This document shows positions 3,946 through 62,816 of a stretch of 64,000 nt of DNA, one piece after another (positions within the stretch are counted from its first letter, which is position 1; the number at the start of each line of letters is the position of its first letter). Below the pieces are notes generated by a model, which searched no databases, was not told the DNA's origin, and saw only the letters and a list, made by a program, of their open reading frames with translations. A program made the position numbers and the translations under genes. Where the stretch lies: the NCBI GenBank assembly GCA_964654205.1, contig CAZZHR010000002.1, positions 65,800 through 129,799 on the forward strand, read 5' to 3'. Origin of the DNA: an uncultured Candidatus Saccharibacteria bacterium (lineage in GTDB: Bacteria; Patescibacteriota; Minisyncoccia; Phycocordibacterales; UBA2100).

Positions 3946-4668
3946 TTATACAGTCTCCGCGAGCACGGGGGGTGTGCATCCGCGCATGGCCCTCTCGTGG
4001 AGGCGAGCGAAGGCCTGGGCAGGATTGTCGCTCTTTGAGATTGCCGAGCCCACGCAGAGTCGATTTGCCCCGGCACGTACGAGGTCCTCGATGTTGGACT
4101 CCCCCACGCCACCGTCTACTGCCACCATGAGGTCGGGGTGTTTTGCATGCAGCTCTTCAACTCGTGAAAGCGCGGTGTCATTGAATGGCTGACCCTGGGG
4201 ACCAATCTTCGTTATAGACATCAGAAGCGCGTAATCAATAGCAGAAACAAATTCATCAATAGCAGCGAGTGGCGTATCAATCTTTAGCGCGAGACCAATC
4301 TCATTCGTTCCAGCACTGCGGCACAATGCGATTGTGCGCTGCACATCCTCTGCCGTGTCGAAGGATTCGACATGAAATACGATTCTCTTGAATCCAGCCT
4401 GAGCGAAGCACTCATAAACATCAAGATTCTGTTTTATCATCAAATGCAACTCCATCGAAACACTTCCTCCTAGCCTCAATTGCCGCAATTCCTCAAGCTG
4501 GGTCACATTGTTGAACGGCCATGTCTTTATATCTACGAACACGCCGTCGTCTATATCCACGTGCATCCAGTCGGTGTACGAACCGACGGATTGCACATAC
4601 GAAGCAACGTCGGACCACTCCCTCGGGACAACCGTCGGAAGTATGTGTGGGTCGCAAAGGTACCTCAT
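3946..4668 (-). CDS. rpe: Ribulose-phosphate 3-epimerase
   Basis: TIM-barrel Rpe motifs 'MHVDIDDGVFV', 'HLMI', 'DGGVG'. Probable start 'MRYLCDPHIL'. Confidence 0.85.
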   Translation of the reverse strand: MRYLCDPHILPTVVPREWSDVASYVQSVGSYTDWMHVDIDDGVFVDIKTWPFNNVTQLEELRQLRLGGSVSMELHLMIKQNLDVYECFAQAGFKRIVFHVESFDTAEDVQRTIALCRSAGTNEIGLALKIDTPLAAIDEFVSAIDYALLMSITKIGPQGQPFNDTALSRVEELHAKHPDLMVAVDGGVGESNIEDLVRAGANRLCVGSAISKSDNPAQAFARLHERAMRGCTPPVLAETV

Positions 4669-7649: not shown

Positions 7650-7874
7650 TCAACGGTTCGCGTGCATCAGGCATTCCGCTCGGACGTACGGCGGAGTCGC
7701 GTCACAGAAATTCCTCAACCTCACAGTCTTTTGCGCATGCTGATGCAAGTCGACTTTTGCATGACCGAGTGCTGTGTCCATTATCCTGCGCGCCCACTCA
7801 AGCATGCGCGCAGCGAGTATCTCGCCGCTCTCGCGGATGAAGTGGGCAACAGCGCTGATAAAGGACTCGTTCAT
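7650..7874 (-). CDS. Possible small ORF (74 aa), unknown
   Basis: Only an ORF in an otherwise unassigned 200-bp gap. No motifs. Confidence 0.2.
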   Translation of the reverse strand: MNESFISAVAHFIRESGEILAARMLEWARRIMDTALGHAKVDLHQHAQKTVRLRNFCDATPPYVRAECLMHANR

Positions 7875-9141: not shown

Positions 9142-9171
9142 AGGTGAGAGGTTAGAGTTGATAGTTTTTAG
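9141..9171. repeat. Direct repeat copy 1 (taggtgagaggttagagtt..tagtttttag)
   Basis: Matches 9532..9562 (taggtgcgaggttagagttttt-agtttttag). An inverted partial copy 'aaaacctctaacct' lies at 9600..9613. Confidence 0.7.
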
Positions 9172-9598
9172 TTGATAAGGGTGTACGCAACTTCCCGATA
9201 ATCGCCGTAAGCATTCGCTGTACTTCGTCGAGCAATTCGATGGATTTGGAGAAATCTATACTGGGAAAGAGCCGTTGCGCCGCGAGAAGCTGTGTTTCCA
9301 GCTCCGCGGCTGAACCAGCCGAGACGCATAAGAATTGCGCGTAATCCTTCCTTGTCCCCCTCTTTGTACCCTCGGCTATGTTTGAGGGGATTGATATTGC
9401 GGCGCGCCGCATCTGGCTCATCAGACCAAACTGCTCCGACTGTGGGAGTTTCGCGGTATCGCGGTACATCGTTTCGACAAGACTCATAGCCCTCTGCCAC
9501 ACGACCAAATCCTTGAAAGACCGCACAGGGGTAGGTGCGAGGTTAGAGTTTTTAGTTTTTAGGTTTGAGCTGTGTGTCGTTTTCATATTTCTTTTCAC
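9152..9598 (-). CDS. Four-helix-bundle protein (TIGR02436; 23S rRNA intervening-sequence protein family)
   Basis: Characteristic 'DLVVWQRA...QFGLMSQMRRAAISIPSNIAEGTKRGTRKDYAQFLCVSAGSAAELETQLLAA'. The true start may be a GTG near 9523, just inside the upstream direct repeat. Confidence 0.8.
   Translation of the reverse strand: MKRNMKTTHSSNLKTKNSNLAPTPVRSFKDLVVWQRAMSLVETMYRDTAKLPQSEQFGLMSQMRRAAISIPSNIAEGTKRGTRKDYAQFLCVSAGSAAELETQLLAAQRLFPSIDFSKSIELLDEVQRMLTAIIGKLRTPLSTKNYQL
9532..9562. repeat. Direct repeat copy 2 flanking the four-helix-bundle gene
   Basis: See copy 1. It also pairs with 9600..9613 to form a hairpin spanning the annotated start codon. Confidence 0.7.
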
Positions 9599-9611: not shown

Positions 9612-10112
9612 CTATAAACTCATCACTACCTTCCCAATAATGTCGACTTGTTGAACTGCTCCGAAGACGCGCCCATCGCTGCTCTTGCTGCGATTGTCAC
9701 CGAGCACAAGGTAATCTTCTGGCCCGAGTTGCATACGAAATGCTCCATTGTTCGTCCCGCCTATCATGCTTCCCGTCTCGTACCTCGTACTCTTTCCTTC
9801 GCTATCAGTGACCGTCACTCCATCTTCGCCAAGCTCTACAAGCTCACCGGGCAAGCCAATCACCCGTTTCACTTCAATCACCTCTTTCTGGTGCGGATTG
9901 CGATGCACGAGTATGTCGCCACGGCTAATGTGGAATCGGTGAGTCACCTTTTCGACGATAACAACGTCGTTCGCAGAAAACGTCGGCTCCATCGAGCCGC
10001 CAGAGACCACGTACGGACGGAAAATGAAAACCGAAGACAGCAGCGCGAGCGCAATGACAGTCGCAATCGTCTCTTTGTGCGTTCGTATCGTTGTGTGCAA
10101 TTGGTACGTCAT
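9612..10112 (-). CDS. lepB: Signal peptidase I
   Basis: 'VVSGGSMEPTF' (catalytic Ser), 'KRVIGLPGE', 'GDNRSKSSDGR' boxes. Confidence 0.85.
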   Translation of the reverse strand: MTYQLHTTIRTHKETIATVIALALLSSVFIFRPYVVSGGSMEPTFSANDVVIVEKVTHRFHISRGDILVHRNPHQKEVIEVKRVIGLPGELVELGEDGVTVTDSEGKSTRYETGSMIGGTNNGAFRMQLGPEDYLVLGDNRSKSSDGRVFGAVQQVDIIGKVVMSL

Positions 10113-10114
10113 AT

Positions 10115-13100
10115 CTAAATTTCCATCCCGAGCATGAGCGCGAGGGCTTGGACGAAGCTGTTTGATGTGGCGGCAGGGGCGGCAGAATATTTGAACGGCT
10201 GCTCCGCGAACGCGGCGTAGACCATTGTGTCGCCGCTCGTGTTGAGGAAGGTGGTTCTTAACTTGAAACCATTGGCTAGAGAATCAATGACGTCTGCGGG
10301 TGCCGACTCTTGAGACGAACCATCGGCGCCCAAAACGCCACTTATTGGATTGTAGGTGTTCCTTGTTGTATCCAACATCCACCAACTACCCGTCGTTCCA
10401 ACCGCGGGCTTAAGCATGACAAACCGCGGCTTGAAGCCGGTGTAGACGAACGGACCGTCGGTCGAGCCATTGCCGGTGTAGGAGCCAAATGCCGACATGC
10501 CGGTCGTGGAGGCAAAGAGGTACGCCGCGTACTCGCTCCCGCCACCTACGCCGCCCGGTGTGCTCGAGGAATCGGTGAGTGCGCCGTTCTCCGTAAATGC
10601 TCCGCCTCGCCCCCTGTTGATGTGCCAATTGTCGCTCGTTCCAGAGAAGTACACATCGGGGACGAGTGTGGAACCGACCCCGATGACGGGCACGGGTTCG
10701 CCATTCGCGTCGATGAAGAAGCGCCTATTGGCTTCGACCGAGAGGTCCAGGCTCGTCCCGAACTTTATCCAAAGGTCTTTGATGTCTCCCGTGAGCTTGA
10801 AGCCCGCGTCCGGTTCCGCCCCCACCGCGAAGTTGCCTCTCGTCCAGTCGATCGTGTCGTTGGTAAGCGTGGAGCCGCCCGAATTGAAGTCGCTCACATC
10901 GTTGCGGTAGACCCAGGCGGAGCCGGTGTTTAGGTCGACCGAGAAGAGGTAGTGCACCCAGCCACTCGAGGCGAGCGTCTGCGTCGAGGAGTTCAGGATC
11001 ATGTCGAAGTTGTTGGACGCGTCGAGCCCCACGACCTGGATCACCTGCGTACCCGCCGTGCGTACGATGTAGAAGCCCGTGCCGAGGTCTCCCGTCGCTG
11101 CGATCGTCTGGTTGGTGCTATCTGCGCCCGTAATGTTGACCCAAAAAGAGACAGTTAACCGTTTGCCGTCCACGACGTCTGTGAGGTTTGCACCGCGCGT
11201 GAGGTAATCGTTGGTACCGTCGAAATGCGCGGCGCCGCCTTTGTTCACATCGGCATTCGTCCCCACGGTGAAGGCGCTTGCGGTAGGCGCGGTGTCGTTC
11301 CAGTAGGTCGCGTCGTCGGCAGTCGCAGCTGTGCTGTTGAGCAATAGATAGTCAGTCGCCGGTGCAGATGTATTGGACGAGTGATAGACCGCCCAATCGC
11401 CGGAGCCCGAAGCTTGTGTGTACGAGCGGAGCATCGCGCTCCCCTGATCGGCGATCGCCACGCTTGTGGCAGAGAGCGCCGCAACCGCGGGGTTCGGAGT
11501 CGTGCCGTCGACGATACCGCTCCCGTCGGCCACCTCTCTCCAATCGGTACCGTCGAAGGCGTACACACGGAGCTCGTTGGTCGTTGAGTCCACGAATGCC
11601 ACTCTGTTGCGGCCCAGCGCCGCCATGCCCGTCGAGCCTCCACTCGATTCGATTGTGAGAGAATTGCCCACCTGAGACCAATTCGTGCCGTCGAAATCAT
11701 ACGCGCGCAGCTGCTTTGTCCCCGAGTAGTCGTAGAGGGCTACGCGCGAAGCCGAGAGCGCCGCGAGGGAAGGGAGTGTGATGCCGCTGATGTTGAGCTC
11801 GTTCCCAGTCAGAGTCCAGTTGGTGCCGTCGAAATCATACGCGCGCAAGTCGTCGTTGGTGCCGTCGATAAAGGCTATGCGGTCGGACAGGAGCCCCGCA
11901 AGCGCGGGAGATCCCACGCCCGAGATGTTGAGCTCGTTGCCGGTCAGCGACCATGTAGAGCCGTTGAAATCGTATGCGCGCAAGTCGTCATTCCCGCTGT
12001 CAATAAATGCGACACGGCTCGAAAGCATAGTTGCGAGCGAGGGCGACCCTATACCCGAGATGCTGAGTCCGCTTCCTGTGAGAGACCAATTCGACGAGCT
12101 CAGGTCGTATGCGCGCAAAGACGCATTCCCGAAATCAACATATGCCACCCTCGTCGCGGAGAGCGCGGCAAGCGCGGGAGTATTGATACCGCTTATCGTG
12201 AGGCTGTTGCTCGTCTGTGCCCAGTCTCCGCGCACCTCTTTCACGAGCATGAAGTCCGGCGCTTTACCGAGCGAATGGCTCACCGTCCTGCTCTTACCCG
12301 TCCCCTTGTACGAGACGATGTCGAACCCGGCCTCCGCCGTCTCTTTCCAGAGCCATGAGATGTAGTTCTTGCCGCTCGTGTTGACGTTGGCCGAGCTCGC
12401 GCCGGAGCCGAGGCTGAAGCCGTTGTCGTCGTACGACGTGAGCGATTCCGTGTCGTCGACATCTTCACCGGCGGTCAGATTGGAGCTGAGCCACGCCTGC
12501 ACCCCGCGCAGAGCATCGAAGAGCGCATGGTTGGTCGAAGCGTCGGTACGGTTCTTTATCCACACGAGGTCGGGGCTAAAGCCGGTAACCGTTGTGCTTG
12601 TACCCGTCTGGTAGACAGACTTTGCCGCACCCGTGCCTGCGTACGCGATCGCATCAAAATAATTCTTCGGCACCACCACATCCGGCTCGGGCAAGTTGGC
12701 GGTCGAGAGTGCTTTGAAGCCAGAGGGCGGTTCGTATCTGAAATATCCCCCCGCCGCCGAGTAGTGCGTCGTCGTAGTTGTCCCTGGCTGACCAAAGTTT
12801 ATTGAAGCGCTTGCACCCGTGTAGACGGCGAGTGATGGAAATACAGGGTCAGCTCCGCTGAGTGTGGCGGCAGCTCCTGTGCCTCCTACTGGGTCACCAC
12901 TGTTCTGCCATGTCCCGTTTTTTGAGAAGTAAATCTTCTTGTTATCCAAATCAAGCGCTACACCGACGACATCGTTCGTTGTAAACGTATTGCCGTACGC
13001 GGCATTGGTCCCTCCGTTGTACGTCGTACCATCATGCCCGTAGTAGCTGATGCCCCCATTAGCAGACGAGCCGCCGGGAAATGCGCCGAGTGTCATCGGA

Positions 13101-14242
13101 GTGAACGCTGTGGAAGTTGCAACCCCGACGAGATAAAAATTACTGCCACTACTCTGTGCACCAGCTGTCACTTCCCAATACCATTTACCACTCGTGACAC
13201 CAATAATTGAGAGTGCCGTAAGAAAATTCCCAGCACTATGAGTCATACTCAAGTTGCCTTGAGAAAGAGTCAGCGAAGAGTTTTTGTAAATCGAGTTAAG
13301 TGTCGCAAACGCGTTCGTCGGGGTGTCGATGACTTGGTCGGTTGCGTCGAGGTTGTTGGCGGTCCAGTTGTTGCCGTTGCCGGATGTGTCGGTGCCAAGC
13401 GCCGCACTGTTGCCAAAGGCGAGCTTGAAGCCATTTGTCCCATACGTGCCCGTGTACGACTTCGGCCGCCAGTATCCATTGGCGTCGTACTCGCCGAAAG
13501 AGGTGGGCGTGAGCGCCTGCCCGTCGACAAAATGTAGGTCGGAGAGGTAGACATCAATCGAGCAACATGCACCCCCTTGTTGCTGACCGATACGATTGTT
13601 CGCATTGGCGAGCGCGAATTGGTACTCAGCGTTTTGTGCGGGATAATTCGCAGCGTCAAACGCCGTAATCTGCATCCCATCGATGTACATCTTCACTCTA
13701 TTCGCTGCAGTCGCATCTGTCGTGTCCCACACAACTACGACATGCATCCATTTTGATGGATCGCGAAAAAGTGCCGAGCTGCGAAGTTCGGCGGAAGTAG
13801 CCCCGCCGAAGGCGAAACTCAGGTTGTCCGCTGCAGCGCCGCCCGCCCCGAATTCAAGCCACGAAGAATTGCTCGACGAACCATCGTAGCCGGCAACTAT
13901 CGTTTGTCTCGTCCCCAAATTCCCCCTTTTTATCCACGTAGATATCGTTCCCTTCTTACGGTCAGCGGGTGCACCGGAGAATGTCTTGCTTAGGTTTGCA
14001 CTGTCATCGTCGTTGAAGCGAGCGCTGTTCGCGATCGTGTACGCCGCCTCCGCCTGCGGGAGTGTGAGAAGCGCAAACTGCGCGCCAAACCACGCCAGCG
14101 CGACAATCGCCGCCACAACCACCCGCCACCTCCACAGCCCGTTCAAAGCGTTCAAGGAGGCGTGCAAGGGGCGCCCTTGCACATGTGCAAGGGCGCCCCT
14201 TGCGCCGGAGATTTTGAGAAACTTGGTGAAGAGATTACTCAT
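10115..14242 (-). CDS. Giant (about 1375 aa) secreted multi-domain protein: LamG-like – SPRY/B30.2 – six ~45-aa tandem repeats – LamG-like
   Basis: N-terminal hydrophobic signal/anchor. SPRY signature 'SGKWYWEVT...NDVVGVALDLDNKKIYFSKNG'. Two concanavalin-A-like (LamG) segments. Six tandem repeats 'LRAYDFDGTNW.LTGNELNISG'. The first ~15 codons overlap the REP-like palindrome, so the true start may be an alternative codon downstream. Confidence 0.75.
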   Translation of the reverse strand: MSNLFTKFLKISGARGALAHVQGRPLHASLNALNGLWRWRVVVAAIVALAWFGAQFALLTLPQAEAAYTIANSARFNDDDSANLSKTFSGAPADRKKGTISTWIKRGNLGTRQTIVAGYDGSSSNSSWLEFGAGGAAADNLSFAFGGATSAELRSSALFRDPSKWMHVVVVWDTTDATAANRVKMYIDGMQITAFDAANYPAQNAEYQFALANANNRIGQQQGGACCSIDVYLSDLHFVDGQALTPTSFGEYDANGYWRPKSYTGTYGTNGFKLAFGNSAALGTDTSGNGNNWTANNLDATDQVIDTPTNAFATLNSIYKNSSLTLSQGNLSMTHSAGNFLTALSIIGVTSGKWYWEVTAGAQSSGSNFYLVGVATSTAFTPMTLGAFPGGSSANGGISYYGHDGTTYNGGTNAAYGNTFTTNDVVGVALDLDNKKIYFSKNGTWQNSGDPVGGTGAAATLSGADPVFPSLAVYTGASASINFGQPGTTTTTHYSAAGGYFRYEPPSGFKALSTANLPEPDVVVPKNYFDAIAYAGTGAAKSVYQTGTSTTVTGFSPDLVWIKNRTDASTNHALFDALRGVQAWLSSNLTAGEDVDDTESLTSYDDNGFSLGSGASSANVNTSGKNYISWLWKETAEAGFDIVSYKGTGKSRTVSHSLGKAPDFMLVKEVRGDWAQTSNSLTISGINTPALAALSATRVAYVDFGNASLRAYDLSSSNWSLTGSGLSISGIGSPSLATMLSSRVAFIDSGNDDLRAYDFNGSTWSLTGNELNISGVGSPALAGLLSDRIAFIDGTNDDLRAYDFDGTNWTLTGNELNISGITLPSLAALSASRVALYDYSGTKQLRAYDFDGTNWSQVGNSLTIESSGGSTGMAALGRNRVAFVDSTTNELRVYAFDGTDWREVADGSGIVDGTTPNPAVAALSATSVAIADQGSAMLRSYTQASGSGDWAVYHSSNTSAPATDYLLLNSTAATADDATYWNDTAPTASAFTVGTNADVNKGGAAHFDGTNDYLTRGANLTDVVDGKRLTVSFWVNITGADSTNQTIAATGDLGTGFYIVRTAGTQVIQVVGLDASNNFDMILNSSTQTLASSGWVHYLFSVDLNTGSAWVYRNDVSDFNSGGSTLTNDTIDWTRGNFAVGAEPDAGFKLTGDIKDLWIKFGTSLDLSVEANRRFFIDANGEPVPVIGVGSTLVPDVYFSGTSDNWHINRGRGGAFTENGALTDSSSTPGGVGGGSEYAAYLFASTTGMSAFGSYTGNGSTDGPFVYTGFKPRFVMLKPAVGTTGSWWMLDTTRNTYNPISGVLGADGSSQESAPADVIDSLANGFKLRTTFLNTSGDTMVYAAFAEQPFKYSAAPAATSNSFVQALALMLGMEI
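11540..12250. repeat. Intragenic tandem DNA repeats, period ~135-138 bp (5-6 units)
   Basis: Recurring strings 'gtgccgtcgaaatcatacgcgcgca(g/a)' at about 11685, 11823, 11960 and 12095, encoding the 45-aa protein repeats. Confidence 0.65.
14164..14203. repeat. 40-bp perfect REP-like palindrome gcaaggggcgcccttgcaca|tgtgcaagggcgccccttgc
   Basis: Arms verified base by base. It sits 3' of the transposase gene and overlaps the annotated 5' end of the giant LamG/SPRY ORF. Confidence 0.8.
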
Positions 14243-14901
14243 ACTTCGTCGAGCATTAATTCTCGGACTGTCGATTTCCGTGCGACGATGTCGTCGAAAG
14301 CGTCTTCAACGAAACGCTGGTACTCGCGCGCACTCTTGAAGTGCTCAAGGATTGTTGCCGTATCACACAATCCCCCGGTATCTGGCGAGAGGTACTCGGC
14401 ATAGCTACTATGCGGCCACTTTCGAGCGTCTCGCACAAGCTTCGCCACTTGGGGATTCACATGAATATAGGCCGAGAGGTGTTTGAGTTGCGTATCGTCT
14501 ACCACATGCACGGCCTTGATGCGATCCTGAAATACATGTCCCACATGATCGTACTTGCGATTGAAGTACATCGAGTAGCTCGTCAGTAGTTTCAGAAAAA
14601 GTTTACTAATCGATACATCTTTGTTCTGTCGTATGAGAAAATGGAAATGATTAGGCATAAGACAGTACACAGCAATCGAGAATGCATCTCTTTCGAATGG
14701 CTCGATGCGAATCTGGACGCGCTTCCCGCCGGTGTGCAAGGGCGCCCCTTGCACATCGCGACCGAGAGAGCGCATAAGTCGGTCTAGGAAAACTCGTGCA
14801 TCCTCATCATCTCGAAGGATGTCCATCTTGCCATTGCCGCGGCTGAAGAGGTGGTACCACTCTCCTGTCGAGAACTCTTTGTAGTCGCGTGAATTTGTCA
14901 T
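14239..14901 (-). CDS. tnpA: IS200/IS605-family Y1 HUH transposase (RAYT-like, Y1_Tnp)
   Basis: 'YHLFSRGNGK', HUH motif 'MPNHFHFLI', and C-terminal 'FQDRIKAVHVVDDTQLKHLSAYIHVNP...WPHSSY', the Y1 transposase signature. It carries a ~21-aa in-frame insertion encoded by the REP half-site. Confidence 0.65.
   Translation of the reverse strand: MTNSRDYKEFSTGEWYHLFSRGNGKMDILRDDEDARVFLDRLMRSLGRDVQGAPLHTGGKRVQIRIEPFERDAFSIAVYCLMPNHFHFLIRQNKDVSISKLFLKLLTSYSMYFNRKYDHVGHVFQDRIKAVHVVDDTQLKHLSAYIHVNPQVAKLVRDARKWPHSSYAEYLSPDTGGLCDTATILEHFKSAREYQRFVEDAFDDIVARKSTVRELMLDEV
14731..14756. repeat. Half-copy of the REP-like element (ggtgtgcaagggcgccccttgcacat) inside the transposase CDS
   Basis: Identical to one arm plus the centre of the 14164..14203 palindrome. 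It encodes 'RDVQGAPLHTGG' in frame. Confidence 0.75.
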
Positions 14902-14911
14902 ACTCGATTAG

Positions 14912-17900
14912 TCATCTAAAGCCCGTGGCAGCCGCGCCGAATACGACGAGCGAGCTGGTCGCATTGGTCGCGACAAATGAGACGAGGTCACATTGGTTGG
15001 CCGTCGTGGTGAGTGTCGGTGCGCTTCCACCCTGCCAGCGCACGACCGCTGGCCAGGTCAGTGTGCGGCTTCCCGTGCCGTCTTGGCACACCACGAGACG
15101 GAGGATTTGCCCCGCGATGAAATTGGAGAATGTAATCGTGCGGTTGCCGCCGAGTGTCACCTTCTGCTGGTTGCCTTCAAGCCAGTTGATAGCCACGGTC
15201 GCGCCGTCGGAGAGACTCCTTTCCACCGTGGTGATAGCGCCACCCGCACCCACCGCAAATTTCGCAAACGGCGTCGATGTACCCACACCCACGTTGCCGT
15301 TGGCGTTGATGACAAAGAGGGACTGCGCTGTGGTGGAAGCGACCTGTATGAAGTTGGTCGAGCTATCCTGCGTCTCTATCGTGAGCTTGGCCGCAGGGGT
15401 CGTGGTGCCGATTCCTGCCGCTGTCTCTACATAGAGCTTGCCCGCTCCAGTCGGCGACGTGGGGCAGCCGGATGCGCAGACAAGGAGGTTGTCGTCGGAG
15501 AGCAGAATGTTTTTGTTGGACGTGTGTATCGTAAGGTCGCCAGTCGAGTCCACTTGGAGCGAGGCGACCGTGGAATCATTGTACGAAATCGCTACCTGAG
15601 GATTCGCCGCTGCAGCCGTCACCGAGAACTTGCGGTACGGCGATGTGGTGCCGACACCGAAGAATCCGGCACTCGTGGCGCGCATCACCTCGGTGAGCGC
15701 GCCACTTTGCAGTGTCGAGAACACGAGGTCGCCCTTCCCGAGCCCGCCGAAGTTCTGTTGCAAGATGCTCGTGATTGCAGAAGTCGTCGTACCCGTGCCG
15801 GTGACATCGAGCGCGCGGAATGAGAGCCGCGATGCGGTCGATGTCGCGCTCGCCGCATTGGTGAGGTAGAGCTGGTCGGCGGTCGCGCCGGAAGATGTGT
15901 TGTAGACATCGAGCTTCGTGCCCGGCGTCGTCGTACCGATGCCGACATTGCCCGTGCTGGTGATGCGCATTCGCTCTTGGCTCGACTCATATCCACCAGT
16001 CCTAAACTGAATACTGTCGGAGCCGCCTGATGCAACATTCCCGTTGGTAAAGAGCACCAGACTAGTATTCGAACCGAAACTCGTGTTTCCGCCGAGACCG
16101 TATCCGACACCAGACCCGTACGCACGGAAGTAGCCTGTCGCAGTATCGCTATGTACAGTGTATGTGCTCTGACCATTGCTATTTGCATTCGTCACCGTGA
16201 CCCCGTCGACGCTCGCTACATTGCTGTACACAGTGAGTTTTGTAGACGGAGTCGTCGTCCCTACCCCCACGTTGCCGGTGTTTGTCACCGCAAAGAGCGA
16301 GCTCGTCGCGCTCGCGGTCGAGCTCGCTATCTCGAAGAGCATCGTATTGGTCTCGCCCGACAGTGCGTGCACTGAGAGCTTAGCCCACGGCGACGACGTG
16401 CCGATACCGAAGCGCGCATTGACCGTATCCCACGTGAGCGTACTCGACGCCGCCATCACGCCGCCGTAGTTGAATTGTATGTTGCCGTTGCCGCCTGCCG
16501 GAGCCGAGCCGCCGGATGCGAGGAGGGAGCCGGAGAAGTATGTGTAGACTGCCGAACCATCGACAGCTGTACCCGTTGAAAGCACCGCTGCTTCGAGATA
16601 GTCGGATGTTCCATTCATGTCGACAATGGTGGTTACTTGCGCCGCATCTGCACCACCCGATCGATAGGGACCGTTTGCTATCGCGACACCGTTCTTACGG
16701 ACAGCTGCCTGACAGTTGTTTGTGGTATTTGTACATCCAACAGACGCGACAACGATATACTTGCCGGCTACCGTAGGTGTGAAGCGGTTGGTCGTTAGGT
16801 CAAAATTGTTGTTGGTATCGTAAGTTTCAGTCGTCCAATCGACCACAAGTACCGTATCGCTCACAGTGGTTGTCGCCGACCCATTGCGATGCACATGGAA
16901 CGCTACCGTAGAAGAAGCGGTTCCAACCGTGCGGTTCGTGTAGACCTTGACCGCGAATCCGCCTGCGCCGCCTGCGCCGCCTGCGCCTCCAGTGCCCGCA
17001 TTTCCAGCGCTACCCCCGGAGCCAACGGTGAAATAGAAAGTCCCCGTCGGACTGCCTACAAGCTCGTACGCGTATCCTCCGCCTCCACCTCCGCCTCCAC
17101 TCCATACGTTGTTGAGATCATTGATTCCGCCGCCAGCCCCTCCTCCTCCGAACGCGTTGCCTGCGCCGCCTGCTGCCGTAGTACCCGCTCCGCCACCCCC
17201 ACCGCGGGCACCATTGCCCCCCGCTCCTCCCACTGCGTACAGATCTTGCGTCTCCCCACCATCCGCATCAATACCAAGCGTGAGTCCGCCTGCACCACCA
17301 ACGAGATTTACTTCGCCACCGGAGCCAGAACCGCCAGATGCCGCAGGCCCATTGGAGCCAGACCCACCGCCTCCGCCCGTCGCACTTAAGTGCGGAGAGG
17401 AGCATGCGACAGAATTGCTTCCGAAGCATGTCGTACCTCCTACGCCACCATTGCCGCCGTTGCCTCCACCGCCACCCCCTCCACCGCCGCCCCAAACCTC
17501 CACTTCTATATATGACGTATCGCTCGGGAGCGTGAGCGTGCCACCGGAGAAGCTCGGTGCGCTGCCGGGGTCTCCGGTGAAGACCACCGACGAGGTTCCC
17601 ACAGTGGAAGTCGCGTATGTTCCTATGAGCGTGTTGCCACCACCTCCGCCTCCACTCGAGCCGCTCCCCGTCCCCGCACACTGTCCGCTCGGGAGCAGGA
17701 AGCAGCCGCTCGTGAGTTGGACGCCACCCGCAAAGGTGGATGTTGCCGAGCCGGTGATATTGAGGAGTGTTGATTGAATGCCGCCAGAGAATGTTGTGGT
17801 GGAAGGCGACCCAAACGTCGCTGCGCCGGTGGATGCCGAGAACGAGAGCGCGGCTACCGTAGAAGTCGACGAGTGCGTCGAGGTGGCGAGGTAGAAGGTG

Positions 17901-20900
17901 CTGCCGATGTTGCGGAGTGTCCAGAGATTGCTGCCGAGCCCGTCCGAGAGCGCGAGCTGCGGACCTGTCGAGCTCGCGACCGTAAGAATATGGTACGGTG
18001 TCGTCGTACCGATGCCGAACGTACCGTTGAAATAGCCGAGACCGTTGTCGAGAATGCGGAAGCGCGTCGTCGAGGCGGAGTCGAAGAATTCCGTGAGTAT
18101 GCCCGTGCCCGTCCCAGATCCCTGCACTGAGAGCTTAGCCCACGGTGACGTGGTGCCGATTCCGACGTTGCCCGTCGAACCCTGAATGAGCATTCTCGTC
18201 GCGTAACTCCCGGCCGTTGCGTTGGCCTTGAAATGGAGGTCGCCATTGTTGCCCGTCTGCCCTATCTCCGCCCAGCCCGTGCCAGTACCCGCGCCGCCGG
18301 TCGTGAATATCATGCTGCCGACGTTGCCTGTACCGGCTCTGTTGAGGAAGAGTCGGAAGTCGCCCGACGTGTCAAAGGCCGCACTCGTACCGAAGACGTC
18401 GAGCTTACTCCCCGGCGTCGTCGTACCGATTCCCACGCTGCCGGTGCTCTTTACCGCCAAAAGGTCACCGCCGGATCCGCTCGATGAGTTGAGCTGCAAG
18501 AGGTCCGCGCTGGAACCGGTATGAAGACTTCCAACGATGACGGGCTTCGCGATGTCGTGCTCGTTGTAGATGTTGAAGATACCTGTAAAGGTCGGGGAGG
18601 TTTTGCCAAAACCGATCTCCCCCGTGGGACTGACGATGAAGGCGTTGACGCCGTCGGTCCTGTTCTGGAAGAAGAGCGCCCCAGCAGGAGTATTGCCGCT
18701 ATCCCCCGCGAGGAAGCCCCATTTCTTACCGCCGGAGTCCGTATTCTGGAGATTGAACCACGGATCGCTGCCGCTCACATGGAACTTCGCGTCGCTTGAA
18801 GCTGCGCCCACGCCGAGCAGACCCTGCACGAGTAGGTTACCTGTCGTCGTCGCGCCGCCTGAGATCGTGAGGCCGCCCGCCTGTGTGCCGTCGCCGATGG
18901 TGGAACTTGCTGTGACACCGAGGCCGCCAGTTACAGCGAGTGTGGTCCACGGACTTACGTTGCCGATACCGACACTTCCACCACCGCTTTGAAGGACGAG
19001 ATTATTCCATGCACCGGCACCGCTGCTCTGTGCGCTGAGTCCAAAATAAGTATTGCCCGTGCTCGCGCCCGACGCTACAAAGAGCACCGAACCGGCTGAA
19101 CCAGAGACCCAATCGCTCGTCGTTATCGCAAGTTGTGAAGGCGCATTACCGCCAGTAATTTGCAACTTACCGTTGGTCGGACTCGCCGTGCCGATACCGA
19201 AGTTGCCGCTGATGCGGTCGACGAAGACGAGCGGCGAGGAGGTACCGACGGTAAAGAGCGAGGTCGATGGCGGCGTCGATGTGCCGACGGCGAGACCGCC
19301 GGAGGCGATTGTGCTCGTCGCCGTCGTCGAAGTGGCGACGAAATATGAAGCGTCGACGAATGACGTAAAGCGAGCATTGCCACTAACGTGAAGCTTATAG
19401 GTGGGAGAGGTATTACCTATACCTACAGAGCCAGCTGTATTGAGGAACAATAAGTCTGTCGCCGCGGCGCCCGTGCTGATGGAAAATCCAGAGCTATCGT
19501 TACCACTGATTCCGACTTTCCATTCTGGAGTCGTACCGCTTCTGACAAAGCTGACATTCGGTGCCACATTTCCGTTTATCAAAATTCCTTGATACGTCGT
19601 TCCTGCAGTCACATGGAGTGGCTGCTGCGGATTTGTTGTTCCAATTCCAACCCGACCGCTTGGGTTCCAAATGCCGGAGCCCGGGAAGAATGCGGTGCCA
19701 GAGACAGAGAGCGCGGTTGAGGACGCATACGGGAACGTGGACGCTGCTGTGGTAGAAGTCGCAGTGAAGATTGGCGCGGTGATGGTGTTGTATGCGGTGA
19801 GTGCGCCGCGCAGGAGTGAGCTGCCCGCGACTGAGAGGTTTCCGCTTGAGTCGATGGTCGTCGTCGCGCTGCCGCCGAAGTACGCAGTGCCAAAGTTGGA
19901 GAAGTTAGTACTCGACGCATTCCCCGAGAATATCTGGAGCGCCGTCCAGTTGTTGGAGACACTTGTGTCCACGGAGCCCCCACCGCCCGTGATACAAGCA
20001 CCGTCTACGGCAAAGCATCCGTCGGCGAGGTTTATTCCATTGGCAAATGTGGTAGTAGCCGAGCCGGTAAAGGTAATATCGCTCAGCGTAGTCCCAGAAA
20101 GGGTACCGCCCGTAATCGTCGAGTCGGAGATATCGACGCTGCTGAGCTGATCGATTTTGTTTGTGTGCGCGACCGTCTGATACACATTGGTAATACTTGC
20201 CGACTGCGCTGTAGAGACACCGGCGACGAGGCTTGTGAGTCGCTGTTCCACGGCTGCGATCCGCGTATCGAGGTCGGCATCCGTGATGCCGCCGACAGAT
20301 GCAACTATGCGCTCGGTCTCGACGATACGTTCAACGACTCGTTCGTTTGTCACCACAGTCGATGTGCTCACAACAACAGGCGTTTGCTGCGATTGCGCTA
20401 CGATAACCTGTGCGCGTTCATACGGATCCATCGTGTCGATGAATCCCGCATCGAGCGGTGTAAGTGCGAGCGAGTTCGTCGCGTCACTCGGGAACACGAT
20501 GTTGTAGACGAACGTGTCGACGCTCGTGTTGACTGCCTTCGCGATGGTGCGCAGCGCATCAGGGAAGAAAGAAAGTGTCGCGCTCGATACTTGTGCGAGC
20601 GCGACCTCGGGATTCTCAACCGCATAGTACGTCGCATCACTCGCCGCGCGCACCGCGCGCGTCGCCACTTCATCAACTCGTACGAGCGACTGCGCGACGC
20701 TCGCCGCCATCTCGCGCGTAGTCTCCGCTGCAAACCGCGCATAGGCTGGGTCGACAAACGCATACGTGCCAAATGTCATGGTGAACGCAACGAGCATCGC
20801 GACAAACTTCTGCAGAAACTCCGTCGCGGGAGAAATCGTGTACACCGGCACGTGCACATGTGCGTGACTCAAAGTACGAGCAACCGCCTCGTGCACGCCC

Positions 20901-21349
20901 GACGGCGCCGCTGCGATAGACGGCATCGCGTGAGCGACCTTCGCGCTCTGCGCCACCGCCGCAGCCTTCAATTTTTCCTGCACATGCTTCGCGTGCGCCG
21001 CCAACGTCTTCGTCACAGGTATTTGTCCGCTCACAGAAAGGGCGCTCTCGACACTCTTTACACTTTCAGATTTCAACTTTATATCTTGTGGCTTATTCTC
21101 CACCCCGTGATATTCACGCACCCGTTCATCCGACAGCTGCTCCCTGCGGATGGTTTTCGCATGCTCTTGCTCCACGAGGTATTTTTGGAGCGAGCCCTCA
21201 TCGACGTACCAGTTCTTGCCGATTCTTCTACCGCGAAGCCTTCCATCACGGCAAAGACGAGCGATGTAGTCGCGAGAGAGCCCTGCACTGGATGAAGCAT
21301 CCCCGGCCGAGAGGTGCTTCTGCCCGTCGAAATATATTTCGTTGCTCAT
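14912..21349 (-). CDS. Giant (about 2146 aa) membrane-anchored surface fibre protein: N-terminal HTH_17-like domain – TM helix – Gly/Ser/Thr-rich tail-fibre-like repeats
   Basis: Start trimmed to 'MSNEIYFDGQKHLSAGDASSSAGLSRDYIARLCRDGRLRGRRIGKNWYVDEGSL' (excisionase/HTH_17-like). TM helix 'FVAMLVAFTMTFGTYAFV'. At least 14 repeats of 'VGIGTT.P..KL.V'. Poly-Gly block 'YIEVEVWGGGGGGGGGG'. Antisense Arg-rich ORFs are artefacts. Confidence 0.75.
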   Translation of the reverse strand: MSNEIYFDGQKHLSAGDASSSAGLSRDYIARLCRDGRLRGRRIGKNWYVDEGSLQKYLVEQEHAKTIRREQLSDERVREYHGVENKPQDIKLKSESVKSVESALSVSGQIPVTKTLAAHAKHVQEKLKAAAVAQSAKVAHAMPSIAAAPSGVHEAVARTLSHAHVHVPVYTISPATEFLQKFVAMLVAFTMTFGTYAFVDPAYARFAAETTREMAASVAQSLVRVDEVATRAVRAASDATYYAVENPEVALAQVSSATLSFFPDALRTIAKAVNTSVDTFVYNIVFPSDATNSLALTPLDAGFIDTMDPYERAQVIVAQSQQTPVVVSTSTVVTNERVVERIVETERIVASVGGITDADLDTRIAAVEQRLTSLVAGVSTAQSASITNVYQTVAHTNKIDQLSSVDISDSTITGGTLSGTTLSDITFTGSATTTFANGINLADGCFAVDGACITGGGGSVDTSVSNNWTALQIFSGNASSTNFSNFGTAYFGGSATTTIDSSGNLSVAGSSLLRGALTAYNTITAPIFTATSTTAASTFPYASSTALSVSGTAFFPGSGIWNPSGRVGIGTTNPQQPLHVTAGTTYQGILINGNVAPNVSFVRSGTTPEWKVGISGNDSSGFSISTGAAATDLLFLNTAGSVGIGNTSPTYKLHVSGNARFTSFVDASYFVATSTTATSTIASGGLAVGTSTPPSTSLFTVGTSSPLVFVDRISGNFGIGTASPTNGKLQITGGNAPSQLAITTSDWVSGSAGSVLFVASGASTGNTYFGLSAQSSGAGAWNNLVLQSGGGSVGIGNVSPWTTLAVTGGLGVTASSTIGDGTQAGGLTISGGATTTGNLLVQGLLGVGAASSDAKFHVSGSDPWFNLQNTDSGGKKWGFLAGDSGNTPAGALFFQNRTDGVNAFIVSPTGEIGFGKTSPTFTGIFNIYNEHDIAKPVIVGSLHTGSSADLLQLNSSSGSGGDLLAVKSTGSVGIGTTTPGSKLDVFGTSAAFDTSGDFRLFLNRAGTGNVGSMIFTTGGAGTGTGWAEIGQTGNNGDLHFKANATAGSYATRMLIQGSTGNVGIGTTSPWAKLSVQGSGTGTGILTEFFDSASTTRFRILDNGLGYFNGTFGIGTTTPYHILTVASSTGPQLALSDGLGSNLWTLRNIGSTFYLATSTHSSTSTVAALSFSASTGAATFGSPSTTTFSGGIQSTLLNITGSATSTFAGGVQLTSGCFLLPSGQCAGTGSGSSGGGGGGNTLIGTYATSTVGTSSVVFTGDPGSAPSFSGGTLTLPSDTSYIEVEVWGGGGGGGGGGNGGNGGVGGTTCFGSNSVACSSPHLSATGGGGGSGSNGPAASGGSGSGGEVNLVGGAGGLTLGIDADGGETQDLYAVGGAGGNGARGGGGGAGTTAAGGAGNAFGGGGAGGGINDLNNVWSGGGGGGGGYAYELVGSPTGTFYFTVGSGGSAGNAGTGGAGGAGGAGGFAVKVYTNRTVGTASSTVAFHVHRNGSATTTVSDTVLVVDWTTETYDTNNNFDLTTNRFTPTVAGKYIVVASVGCTNTTNNCQAAVRKNGVAIANGPYRSGGADAAQVTTIVDMNGTSDYLEAAVLSTGTAVDGSAVYTYFSGSLLASGGSAPAGGNGNIQFNYGGVMAASSTLTWDTVNARFGIGTSSPWAKLSVHALSGETNTMLFEIASSTASATSSLFAVTNTGNVGVGTTTPSTKLTVYSNVASVDGVTVTNANSNGQSTYTVHSDTATGYFRAYGSGVGYGLGGNTSFGSNTSLVLFTNGNVASGGSDSIQFRTGGYESSQERMRITSTGNVGIGTTTPGTKLDVYNTSSGATADQLYLTNAASATSTASRLSFRALDVTGTGTTTSAITSILQQNFGGLGKGDLVFSTLQSGALTEVMRATSAGFFGVGTTSPYRKFSVTAAAANPQVAISYNDSTVASLQVDSTGDLTIHTSNKNILLSDDNLLVCASGCPTSPTGAGKLYVETAAGIGTTTPAAKLTIETQDSSTNFIQVASTTAQSLFVINANGNVGVGTSTPFAKFAVGAGGAITTVERSLSDGATVAINWLEGNQQKVTLGGNRTITFSNFIAGQILRLVVCQDGTGSRTLTWPAVVRWQGGSAPTLTTTANQCDLVSFVATNATSSLVVFGAAATGFR

Positions 21350-21649
21350 GAGCGATGATGCCTGTGGCCGGACGCACGATTTATCTAATATTCTACTACT
21401 CTTTTCGCCAATTGGACGTGTATCGGACACTATTACGTGTGGACAAGCCTAAGCAGAATTTGTACCGGACATTTTTTACATTTTTTCCCACAAGTTCGTA
21501 TCAACGCACAAAAAATTCTCCGTTTTTTTGAAAAAAAGCCTCTTCACTACAACCTCTCACCTCTTACCTACCCCCCTCCTCCCGGCCGACTCGGGCATCC
21601 GAGGAGCGACGTAGAGCGGTATTCCGCGCGTGTGTGGCGCAGAAAATGA

Positions 21650-62724: not shown

Positions 62725-62771
62725 ACGCTCCTAGTGCACAAACATCTTTATAGTCCTGTGTACCCCTCCCT

Positions 62772-62816
62772 CCCATGAGTGACCTCGTAGGTCACTCATG
62801 GGAGGTCACTCATGGG
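62772..62816. repeat. Triple 13-bp element: cccatgagtgacc / ggtcactcatggg (inverted) / ggtcactcatggg (direct)
   Basis: Read directly. An inverted repeat with a 5-nt spacer is followed 1 nt later by a second direct copy. Confidence 0.7.

Follow-up and report, generated by a model that had tools for sequence, protein, structure and literature searches.

Introduction

RAYT/REP systems couple a REP-associated tyrosine transposase (RAYT) to repetitive extragenic palindromes (REPs), and most knowledge of them comes from Proteobacteria and a few further phyla. Here, we describe a RAYT-like HUH/Y1 gene, and the short GC-rich palindromes that lie in and beside it, in 64,000 nt of DNA from an uncultured Candidatus Saccharibacteria bacterium (GenBank assembly GCA_964654205.1, contig CAZZHR010000002.1, positions 65,800 to 129,799 of the forward strand; GTDB lineage Bacteria; Patescibacteriota; Minisyncoccia; Phycocordibacterales; UBA2100); this whole stretch is called ‘the window’ below, and its Y1 locus WIN. 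We think it rather probable that gene and palindromes together make up a REPtron-like system, in which a domesticated RAYT-like enzyme is paired with a cognate REP-like hairpin that is seeded locally within a compact genome.

REPtrons, i.e. RAYT/TnpA_REP genes with their cognate REPs or REPINs (Nunvar 2010, PMC2817692; Bertels & Rainey 2011, PMC3116915), are an established concept, as are REPINs themselves and TIRtrons (PMC2817692, PMC3116915, PMC3733652). The E. coli enzyme TnpA_REP recognises its hairpin on single-stranded DNA (Messing 2012, PMC3479197; PDB 4ER8), and RAYTs behave in a housekeeping-like manner (Bertels 2017, PMC5581495). REPs that sit in frame within tnpA_REP genes have been reported for subclass 2.4, and for some members of subclass 2.8 (Quentin et al. 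2018, PMC6006769), with in-frame intragenic REPs and Rickettsia palindromic elements (RPEs) also documented in functional genes (Di Nocera 2013, PMC3733652). In the literature searched, we found no paper tying RAYTs or REPs to the candidate phyla radiation (CPR)/Patescibacteria.

The window locus shares with REPtrons an HUH/Y1 enzyme of RAYT fold with a Tyr helix of the YIHxNP type, a single-copy and apparently vertically inherited gene, and short GC-rich palindromes that abut it, include an inverted dimer and vary in sequence with lineage. It differs in having hairpin copies in single digits rather than more than 100, most of them intragenic, in the absence from the window of both a GT[AG]G foot and an upstream copy, in a protein that scores below the NCBIfam cutoff for RAYTs, and in its Patescibacteria-type host. 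Members of subclass 2.4 of Quentin et al. (2018) likewise carry cognate REPs in the RAYT gene, in a peripheral variable region and with the frame unbroken; the window gene, however, keeps a normal HuH-Y distance (58 residues between H87 and Y145), its insert lies before the HUH strand (aa 50-56) or, in relatives, after the Tyr helix, and by the definition used there it falls outside the subclass. Like RPEs and intragenic REPs, the palindromes are in frame, often in N-termini, linkers or loops, and occur as singles or dimers; RPEs are longer, and the portions of PMC3733652 that deal with them describe no mobilising enzyme, whereas the units described here measure 19-22 nt and are tied to a RAYT-like gene that is itself one of their hosts. 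Finally, the TnpA proteins of IS200/IS605 elements (IS608, ISDra2) have in common with it the HUH/Y1 fold and recognition of a hairpin on single strands, but those elements are mobile and multi-copy, with a Y-x3-Q motif and defined left and right ends, whereas the window gene is fixed in its synteny without space for such ends. What sets the locus apart from the published cases is thus its lineage, its insertion sites, the missing GTAG foot, the single-digit copy number and a fixed synteny with giant surface-protein genes.

A RAYT-like Y1 protein

The gene (14239-14901 on the minus strand, stop codon included) is predicted to encode a protein of 220 aa, in which translation of the open reading frame places the HUH motif (H85-F-H87, within NHFHFLI) at 14641-14649 and the catalytic Tyr145 (within SAYIHVNP...WPHSSY) at 14467-14469, both on the minus strand; a predicted tryptic peptide is DVQGAPLHTGGK. 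It is the only Y1 gene in the 64 kb. The protein matches Pfam Y1_Tnp over aa 70-147 (E 4e-9, 37 bits against a cutoff of 23), and in an alignment of 40 Y1 homologues with 44-70% identity to it (alignment A1) H85, H87 and Y145 are invariant, with the NP and SSY motifs invariant or nearly so. These homologues are mainly metagenomic, the few that are named being from Paceibacterota, Doudnabacteria, Yanofskybacteria and ‘Patescibacteria group’; the exact window protein was retrieved on two short Logan contigs (L001 and L002, from samples SRR15237804 and SRR15237806).

An AlphaFold (AF2) model of the protein (predicted local distance difference test score, pLDDT, of 87; predicted template modelling score, pTM, of 0.84) runs from a strand (residues 15-20) and a helix (32-45) through a poorly defined stretch, where residues 51-60 have a mean pLDDT of 54, to two strands at the HUH motif (74-81 and 86-92) and the helix that carries the tyrosine (136-152). 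Its top match in a Foldseek search of the PDB is the complex of E. coli TnpA_REP with a REP hairpin (4ER8; E 5e-7, TM score 0.71 normalised to the target), with the ISDra2 and IS608 transposases ranking behind; when the family profile was compared with PDB sequences, 4ER8 was the sole match. Because 4ER8 is at once the best fold and the only PDB sequence match, we assign the protein, on the strength of its sequence and predicted fold, as RAYT-like. The sequence-only reading, made earlier from the letters of the window, had classed it as an RAYT/IS200-type enzyme on its HUH and Tyr motifs, and the Pfam match and fold comparison bear this out.

A hairpin within and beside the gene

The palindrome comes in units of 19-22 nt, which on the coding strand read GTGCAAGGG-GCG-CCCTTGCAC, with a stem of 9-10 bp and a loop of 3 nt; the two possible orientations are distinguished solely by the loop, GCG or CGC. 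There are three copies in the 64 kb, all of them at the Y1 gene. The 19-mer with up to 3 mismatches is found at three sites, against 0.02 expected, and the relaxed 13-nt core, AAGGGSSSCCCTT, with no more than 1 mismatch is found only at the same three, against 0.25 expected; given these numbers, the recurrence of the palindrome at the Y1 gene is not a matter of chance.

One of the three sits in frame inside the gene (14733-14755, minus strand; (T)GTGCAAGGG-GCG-CCCTTGCAC(A), with a 10-bp stem and 3-nt loop) and, taken with its surroundings as a 38-nt segment, has a predicted folding energy of -13.5 kcal/mol as DNA and -22.1 kcal/mol as RNA. The 22 nt at 14733-14754 are 100% complementary to 14162-14183, making the internal copy and the first downstream copy perfect 22-nt inverted repeats, 549 nt apart. 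In translation, 21 nt of the internal copy give seven residues, V50-Q-G-A-P-L-H56, which lie in the loop between helix 32-45 and strand 74-81. An in-frame copy between helix 1 and the HUH strand had been recognised in the sequence-only reading; its presence (14733-14754, V50-H56) is confirmed, and the insertion point agrees with the profile alignments, those of Pfam and NCBIfam alike starting at aa 70, just past the palindrome loop. The suggestion that it added some 21 residues was an overestimate: the palindrome accounts for seven only, and the residues after it (GGKRVQIRIEPF), the remainder of that segment (..GGKRVQIRIEP), align with native loop residues in palindrome-less homologues.

The other two copies form a perfect, GC-rich 40-bp palindrome at 14164-14203 (no strand assigned), as the sequence-only reading had stated, with two 20-nt arms that are 100% complementary and a spacer of 0. 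This is a head-to-head, REPIN-like dimer of the units 14162-14182 and 14185-14204, which begins 35 nt past the Y1 stop codon and is predicted to fold as a hairpin of ~20 bp (-28 kcal/mol as DNA, -44.6 kcal/mol as RNA; z about -8). No T-run follows the dimer hairpin, and on that ground we rejected its reading as an intrinsic terminator; an Rfam scan of 13800-15300 gave a single match, to MIR1437 on the 40-bp hairpin (30 bits against a gathering score of 168), which we put down to chance. All six frames of the palindrome are free of stop codons, and read QGAPL, QGRPL, ARGALA, ARAPLA, CKGAPC and CKGRPC. The two Logan contigs, L001 and L002, both terminate within the 40-bp palindrome, probably as a result of assembly breaking at a perfect palindrome and not as a sign of repeats.

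Recurrence across the gene family

Most of the A1 homologues show QGAPL, PGRPL, EGAPLA or ‘RAPL..QGAPL’ in the same loop, i.e. translations of the palindrome in both orientations and of its dimers. We read the DNA at this loop in ten orthologous or close loci (WIN and the related metagenomic loci L003, L112-L118 and L032): all ten carry a GC-rich palindrome built around the core CAAGGG-SSS-CCCTTG (some have CCAGGG or AAAGGG), and in none of them is QGAPL encoded by non-palindromic codons. The outer stems vary by lineage (TGTGCAAGGG, CTCAAGGG, GTCAAGGG, GGTCAAGGG, GTACCAGGG, GCAAAGGG), with internal copies usually resembling the flanking ones; thus both are of the TGTGCAAGGG type in WIN, L003 and L117, of the CTCAAGGG type in L112 and of the GTCAAGGG type in L114, with CAAAGGG in L032, and the match between inside and outside holds also for L035, L060, L094, L098, L101 and others. 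In L118, internal and flanking copies differ.

The comparison of WIN with L003 is instructive, as the Y1 proteins are 69% identical and the genes 67.6% identical at the nucleotide level, with third codon positions agreeing in 44%. The longest stretch that the genes share without a mismatch coincides exactly with the 22-nt palindrome, and the same 44-nt dimer stands at the same place downstream in both. Over 30 palindrome copies the stem cells are paired in 90%, two-sided changes are seen in 6 of 10 stem pairs, and the covariation score of 0.376 (0.095 in shuffles) was reached by none of 500 shuffles.

Among the loci, the same loop reads the element in all three frames (AKGRPL, QRRAPS, SRAPLESQGAPL, IQGLPLE, TGSRPV, LSGDSRK, LQGQALQ and others), its distance from conserved anchors varies, and it is present as a single copy or as a dimer (the latter in WIN, L003, L112, L035 and L074). 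Some internal copies are decaying while the flanking ones are perfect: a single mismatch is found in that of L115, and both internal copies of L116 are imperfect. Because frame, position and copy number vary, and because the sequence usually tracks that of the flanking copies, what recurs is, to judge from these sequences, a DNA palindrome and not a peptide. The possibility that the segment is native to the subfamily is therefore upheld only insofar as the same loop holds QGAPL, QGRPL or RAPL in most homologues; the peptide itself does not appear to be native.

To these loci we added a wider set of 80 further metagenomic loci (33-52% identity), and hairpin statistics were compiled over 77 related loci, counting perfect stems of at least 8 bp with a GC content of at least 50%. 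Hairpin density is 2.51/kb in the 120 bp on either side of the Y1 gene, 0.45/kb within the gene and 0.12/kb elsewhere, a roughly 20-fold enrichment in the flanks; 34 of the 77 loci have at least one perfect GC-rich hairpin. Many of the 80 have a locus-specific palindrome 2-120 bp from each end of the Y1 gene (e.g. L049, L054, L069, L073, L093, L097, L102, L103 and L108), and copies on both sides of the gene are found in the relatives L117, L032, L060, L098 and L069. Perfect internal copies are present in about 16 of the 77, at two recurrent places: site 1, the loop before the HUH motif (occupied in 12 distinct loci), and site 2, between YIHxNP and the (Y/W)xxSSY motif, after the catalytic-Tyr helix (occupied in seven). 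Both are occupied in L060, L094 and L098, and both are hypervariable in length even where no palindrome is present.

Several further observations concern the behaviour of the palindromes in particular relatives. L112 and L115 (proteins P0004 and P0006) are identical in the C-terminal half of the gene and downstream of it, including a CTCAAGGG dimer, but differ in their N-terminal halves and in their internal copies (a CTCAAGGG dimer in L112, an imperfect GTACCAGGG-type copy in L115), which suggests that alleles or lineages have recombined at the internal palindrome or close to it. Downstream of the ortholog in L113 (10682-10830) palindromes lie within short tandem units (CAAGGTGGTCAAGTGG..); these palindromes are hybrids whose arms do not match (GGTCAAGGG / CCCTTGCAC), as though recombination had joined two variants. 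The P0018-P0027 clade of A1 conserves ‘MPRGALGIGSEL’ at site 1; going by its residues, this may be a decayed palindrome, in an ARGALA-type reading, that has become fixed as protein sequence. A second Y1 subfamily, of the YIHRNP type, carries CTGCAAGGGG(G/C)CCCCTTGCAG within the gene directly after the Tyr helix, where it reads LLQGAPLQ or LLQGGPLQ (L016:7220-7238 and 7764-7782; L019:5506-5524), with a further copy immediately upstream of the start in L016; its hosts are a Patescibacteria metagenome-assembled genome (MAG) and a bin labelled Gammaproteobacteria, a label that may be wrong.

Synteny and copies in other genes

As the sequence-only reading had it, the Y1 gene lies between two giant genes, both on the minus strand: downstream, one for a surface-type protein of 1375 aa with DUF7483 and SPRY domains by Pfam (10115-14242), and upstream, one for a protein of 2172 aa (14912-21430) whose stop lies 10 nt before the Y1 start. 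That gap leaves no space for an upstream hairpin or an insertion sequence (IS) end, and no upstream palindrome copy is present at the window gene; at its other end, the ATG of the 1375-aa gene overlaps the Y1 stop (ATGA). The order of giant protein, Y1, giant DUF7483-type protein and signal peptidase (Peptidase_S26; in the window at 9612-10112, minus strand) is kept at 60-70% amino acid identity in L003, L112, L114, L116 and L118, and partly in L113, with giant upstream genes also found in L003 and L113. An association of Y1 with giant genes is confined to this close subfamily, distant homologues having varied contexts. From the conserved synteny, the presence of one Y1 gene in 64 kb and the abutting neighbours, we conclude that, as far as gene order and sequence can tell, this is a domesticated, vertically inherited gene and not a hopping IS, in keeping with the way that RAYTs behave (PMC5581495).

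The 40-bp dimer falls in the open frame of the 1375-aa gene, which it reads as ARGALAHVQGRPLHA (14159-14203), ahead of a membrane-spanning or signal segment; the predicted N-terminal tail as a whole (14159-14242, minus strand) runs MSNLFTKFLKISG-ARGALAHVQGRPLHA-.., with GALAHVQGRPLHASLNALNGLWR as a predicted tryptic peptide. In six distinct syntenic loci the giant-gene frame is open through the palindromes as far as the ATG at the Y1 stop, and a peptide MK(S/R)F..KL..FE stands ahead of the palindromes in L003, L116 and L118, with MSNLFTKFLKIS as its counterpart in the window. Given this open frame and the similar peptide, the dimer is probably translated as a cytoplasmic tail before the hydrophobic segment, a start codon within or after the hairpin also being possible. 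The earlier statement that the palindrome supplies in-frame codons to the N-terminus of the giant gene thus stands, with the translation being predicted.

Related palindromes are also read by other genes in relatives of the window. The S26 peptidase of L003 has a degenerate dimer in its N-terminal tail (L003:17104-17122, ..ERARGALAQQGRPLRK..) that its window ortholog lacks, and in-frame copies lie in the linker of a class I Trp/Tyr-type aminoacyl-tRNA synthetase, in an M24 peptidase, in the N-terminal region of a sortase, and at the N-terminus and in an inter-domain linker of a Laminin_G_3 protein. It had been proposed that the palindrome was propagating into coding sequence; its in-frame presence in these signal peptidase, synthetase, M24 peptidase, sortase and Laminin_G genes agrees with that proposal, whose active part, propagation, we keep as conjecture. 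The Laminin_G_3 protein of L114 (3200-5362; palindrome at 3990-4008) has SRGALG, PRAPLA and VQGAPLY around its N-terminal signal region, and a fourth palindrome-type peptide, SGQGAPLT, where a linker joins its Laminin_G repeats.

The pattern TGCAAGGGSSSCCCTTGCA was searched for in 185,579 species genomes (the source genome is not among these representatives), which gave 25 stretches, with at most 3 match regions in any one genome. Most of the matches are isolated and in unrelated phyla, roughly at chance level by a back-of-envelope estimate; small clusters occur in a Patescibacteria MAG, in a ‘Gammaproteobacteria’ bin with the same Y1 family and in a Saccharibacteria MAG.

Discussion

Synthesising these results, we propose a model for how the hairpin and the enzyme might be connected. 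By analogy with E. coli TnpA_REP, the enzyme would recognise the folded hairpin on single-stranded DNA, and would occasionally copy or move it, mostly over short distances. As the genome is compact and the palindrome free of stop codons in six frames, selection would leave as survivors only those copies that are in frame and in permissive places, among them both hypervariable loops on the surface of the RAYT-like protein, as well as cytoplasmic tails at N-termini and linkers between domains. Turnover, through re-insertion, gene conversion and decay, would keep the copies of one genome usually alike, whilst the sequence of the stem would drift between lineages by compensatory changes. The seven residues in the Y1 protein would on this model be a neutral insertion; that they are an insertion rather than a native peptide is suggested by the variable frame, position and copy number of the element, by its decay, by its presence in one S26 peptidase and absence from the ortholog, and by the low pLDDT of the modelled loop.

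A number of points weigh against this model. Binding and/or cutting of the hairpin by the enzyme is something we infer from the E. coli case, and it is our assumption that Y1 enzymes act preferentially near their own gene. The match to the NCBIfam equivalog REP_Tyr_transpos (NF047646) reaches 52.2 bits, below the cutoff of 80, and covers aa 70-165 only. No GT[AG]G foot stands beside a hairpin in the window, where the copies start (T)GTGC; GTAG/CTAC is carried by some distant relatives (L033, L036). The abundance usual for REPs (more than 100 copies) is not seen, with three copies in 64 kb, all at the Y1 gene; if the hairpin moves at all, it does so rarely and without being directly visible. 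The description ‘REP-like’ accordingly holds for structure and for association with the gene but not for abundance, whether in the window or in the species genomes scanned. Lastly, nearly all close orthologs retain an intact palindrome in the same loop, which could reflect selection for some function of the internal copy instead of neutral tolerance.

A function of that kind is the substance of the main alternative, in which the internal hairpin and the giant-gene dimer are maintained cis-acting sites; either the Y1 protein or the hairpin itself, in mRNA or ssDNA, would control expression of the Y1 gene and the downstream giant gene, or the sites would be substrates for programmed cleavage, deletion or inversion (self-limitation or phase variation). 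Judged by palindrome-type peptides, about 15 of the 17 closest A1 sequences have an intact palindrome in the same loop, in spite of ~33% nucleotide divergence and the low third-position identity (44%); the longest run shared by WIN and L003 is the palindrome itself, stems are kept through compensatory changes, in several syntenic loci the strongly folding dimer separates the end of the Y1 gene from the main part of the giant gene, and the internal and first downstream copies are perfect inverted repeats 549 nt apart. But 61 of the 77 related loci have no perfect internal hairpin, and among orthologs the frame, exact position, orientation and copy number vary, internal copies decay (L115, L116) and can differ from flanking ones (L118); unrelated housekeeping genes, moreover, contain the same element in frame, although regulation of this sort is implausible for them, and no rearranged variants were seen, in data that allowed no systematic test. 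We consider this explanation unlikely. A bolder form of it, which we hold to be more doubtful still, is that the hairpins within the Y1 gene, together with those at the 5' ends of the giant and signal-peptidase genes, form a self-targeting switch, by which the RAYT-like protein or the mRNA hairpins throttle its own gene and could control or rearrange the giant surface-protein genes next to it in these episymbiotic hosts; if true, this would provide RAYTs with a concrete role in the host.

An autonomous, currently mobile IS200-like element, with the hairpins as its left and right ends, would fit the usual plan of such elements (about 700 bp, a single tnpA and subterminal hairpins) and the arrangement in L117, L069 and L093, where one hairpin stands on each side of the gene. 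Against it, position and neighbours are conserved at 60-70% amino acid identity, the window gene is present once in 64 kb and has no upstream hairpin in its 10-nt gap and a stop that overlaps the next start, the Tyr motif is YIHxNP, as in RAYTs, and not Y-x3-Q, and the best fold match is TnpA_REP and not the TnpA of IS608 or ISDra2. We reject it on synteny, and would give it very little chance of being correct. Least credible of all, to our minds, is a coincidental origin, whether QGAPL is taken as a native motif of the subfamily, with the palindrome a by-product of its codons, or the hairpins are taken as terminators or regulator sites of the ordinary kind that have nothing to do with the Y1 enzyme. 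It is true that QGAPL, QGRPL and EGAPL align in one loop over many homologues, and that the dimer is directly downstream of a gene, where terminators sit; yet from locus to locus the same DNA is translated in each of the three frames at that loop (the ground on which we reject a native motif), the peptide changes with the locus-specific palindrome, identical DNA lies beyond the gene in different frames and on the opposite strand, the segment is modelled with low confidence, no T-run follows the dimer, and hairpins are some 20-fold enriched at the flanks of Y1 genes.

The window locus and about 85 related loci represent a distinct RAYT-like family in Patescibacteria-type (CPR) genomes, with a handful of proposed cognate hairpins, most of them predicted to be translated. 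These lie, among other places, at two recurring in-frame positions within the gene for the enzyme and in the tails with which the giant surface proteins are predicted to begin. Such a family offers a compact natural system for asking whether hairpins are tolerated or used. It is also of use in annotation, for gene starts and domains, where QGAPL, QGRPL, ARGALA and ARAPLA can be recognised as repeat-derived peptides, and it may serve to explain assembly breaks at the 40-bp palindrome. Current views are not overturned, REPs read in frame having been described before both in RAYT genes and elsewhere; the sequence-only reading had called the arrangement unusual, a description that the published in-frame REPs of tnpA_REP genes (PMC6006769) temper.

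Additional features of the window

Near its start (aa 44-85), the upstream 2172-aa protein has a weak HTH_17-like match that does not reach the Pfam cutoff; its L003 counterpart shows the same, which is a strange feature in what is presumed to be a surface protein. A gene for a 148-aa four-helix-bundle protein (9152-9598, minus strand), close to the giant surface-protein genes, separates the S26 peptidase from the gene after it; the protein matches Pfam 23S_rRNA_IVP (E 1e-31) and, weakly, bAvd-like proteins, which accompany diversity-generating retroelements. Two more long, perfect hairpins in the window are not related to the Y1 palindrome: at 1959-1992 an AT-rich palindrome of 34 bp with a loop of zero (GTACCGATTCCTATCTATAGATAGGAATCGGTAC), and at 62769-62805 a hairpin with a 17-bp stem, after which its 3' arm is repeated (TCACTCATGG).

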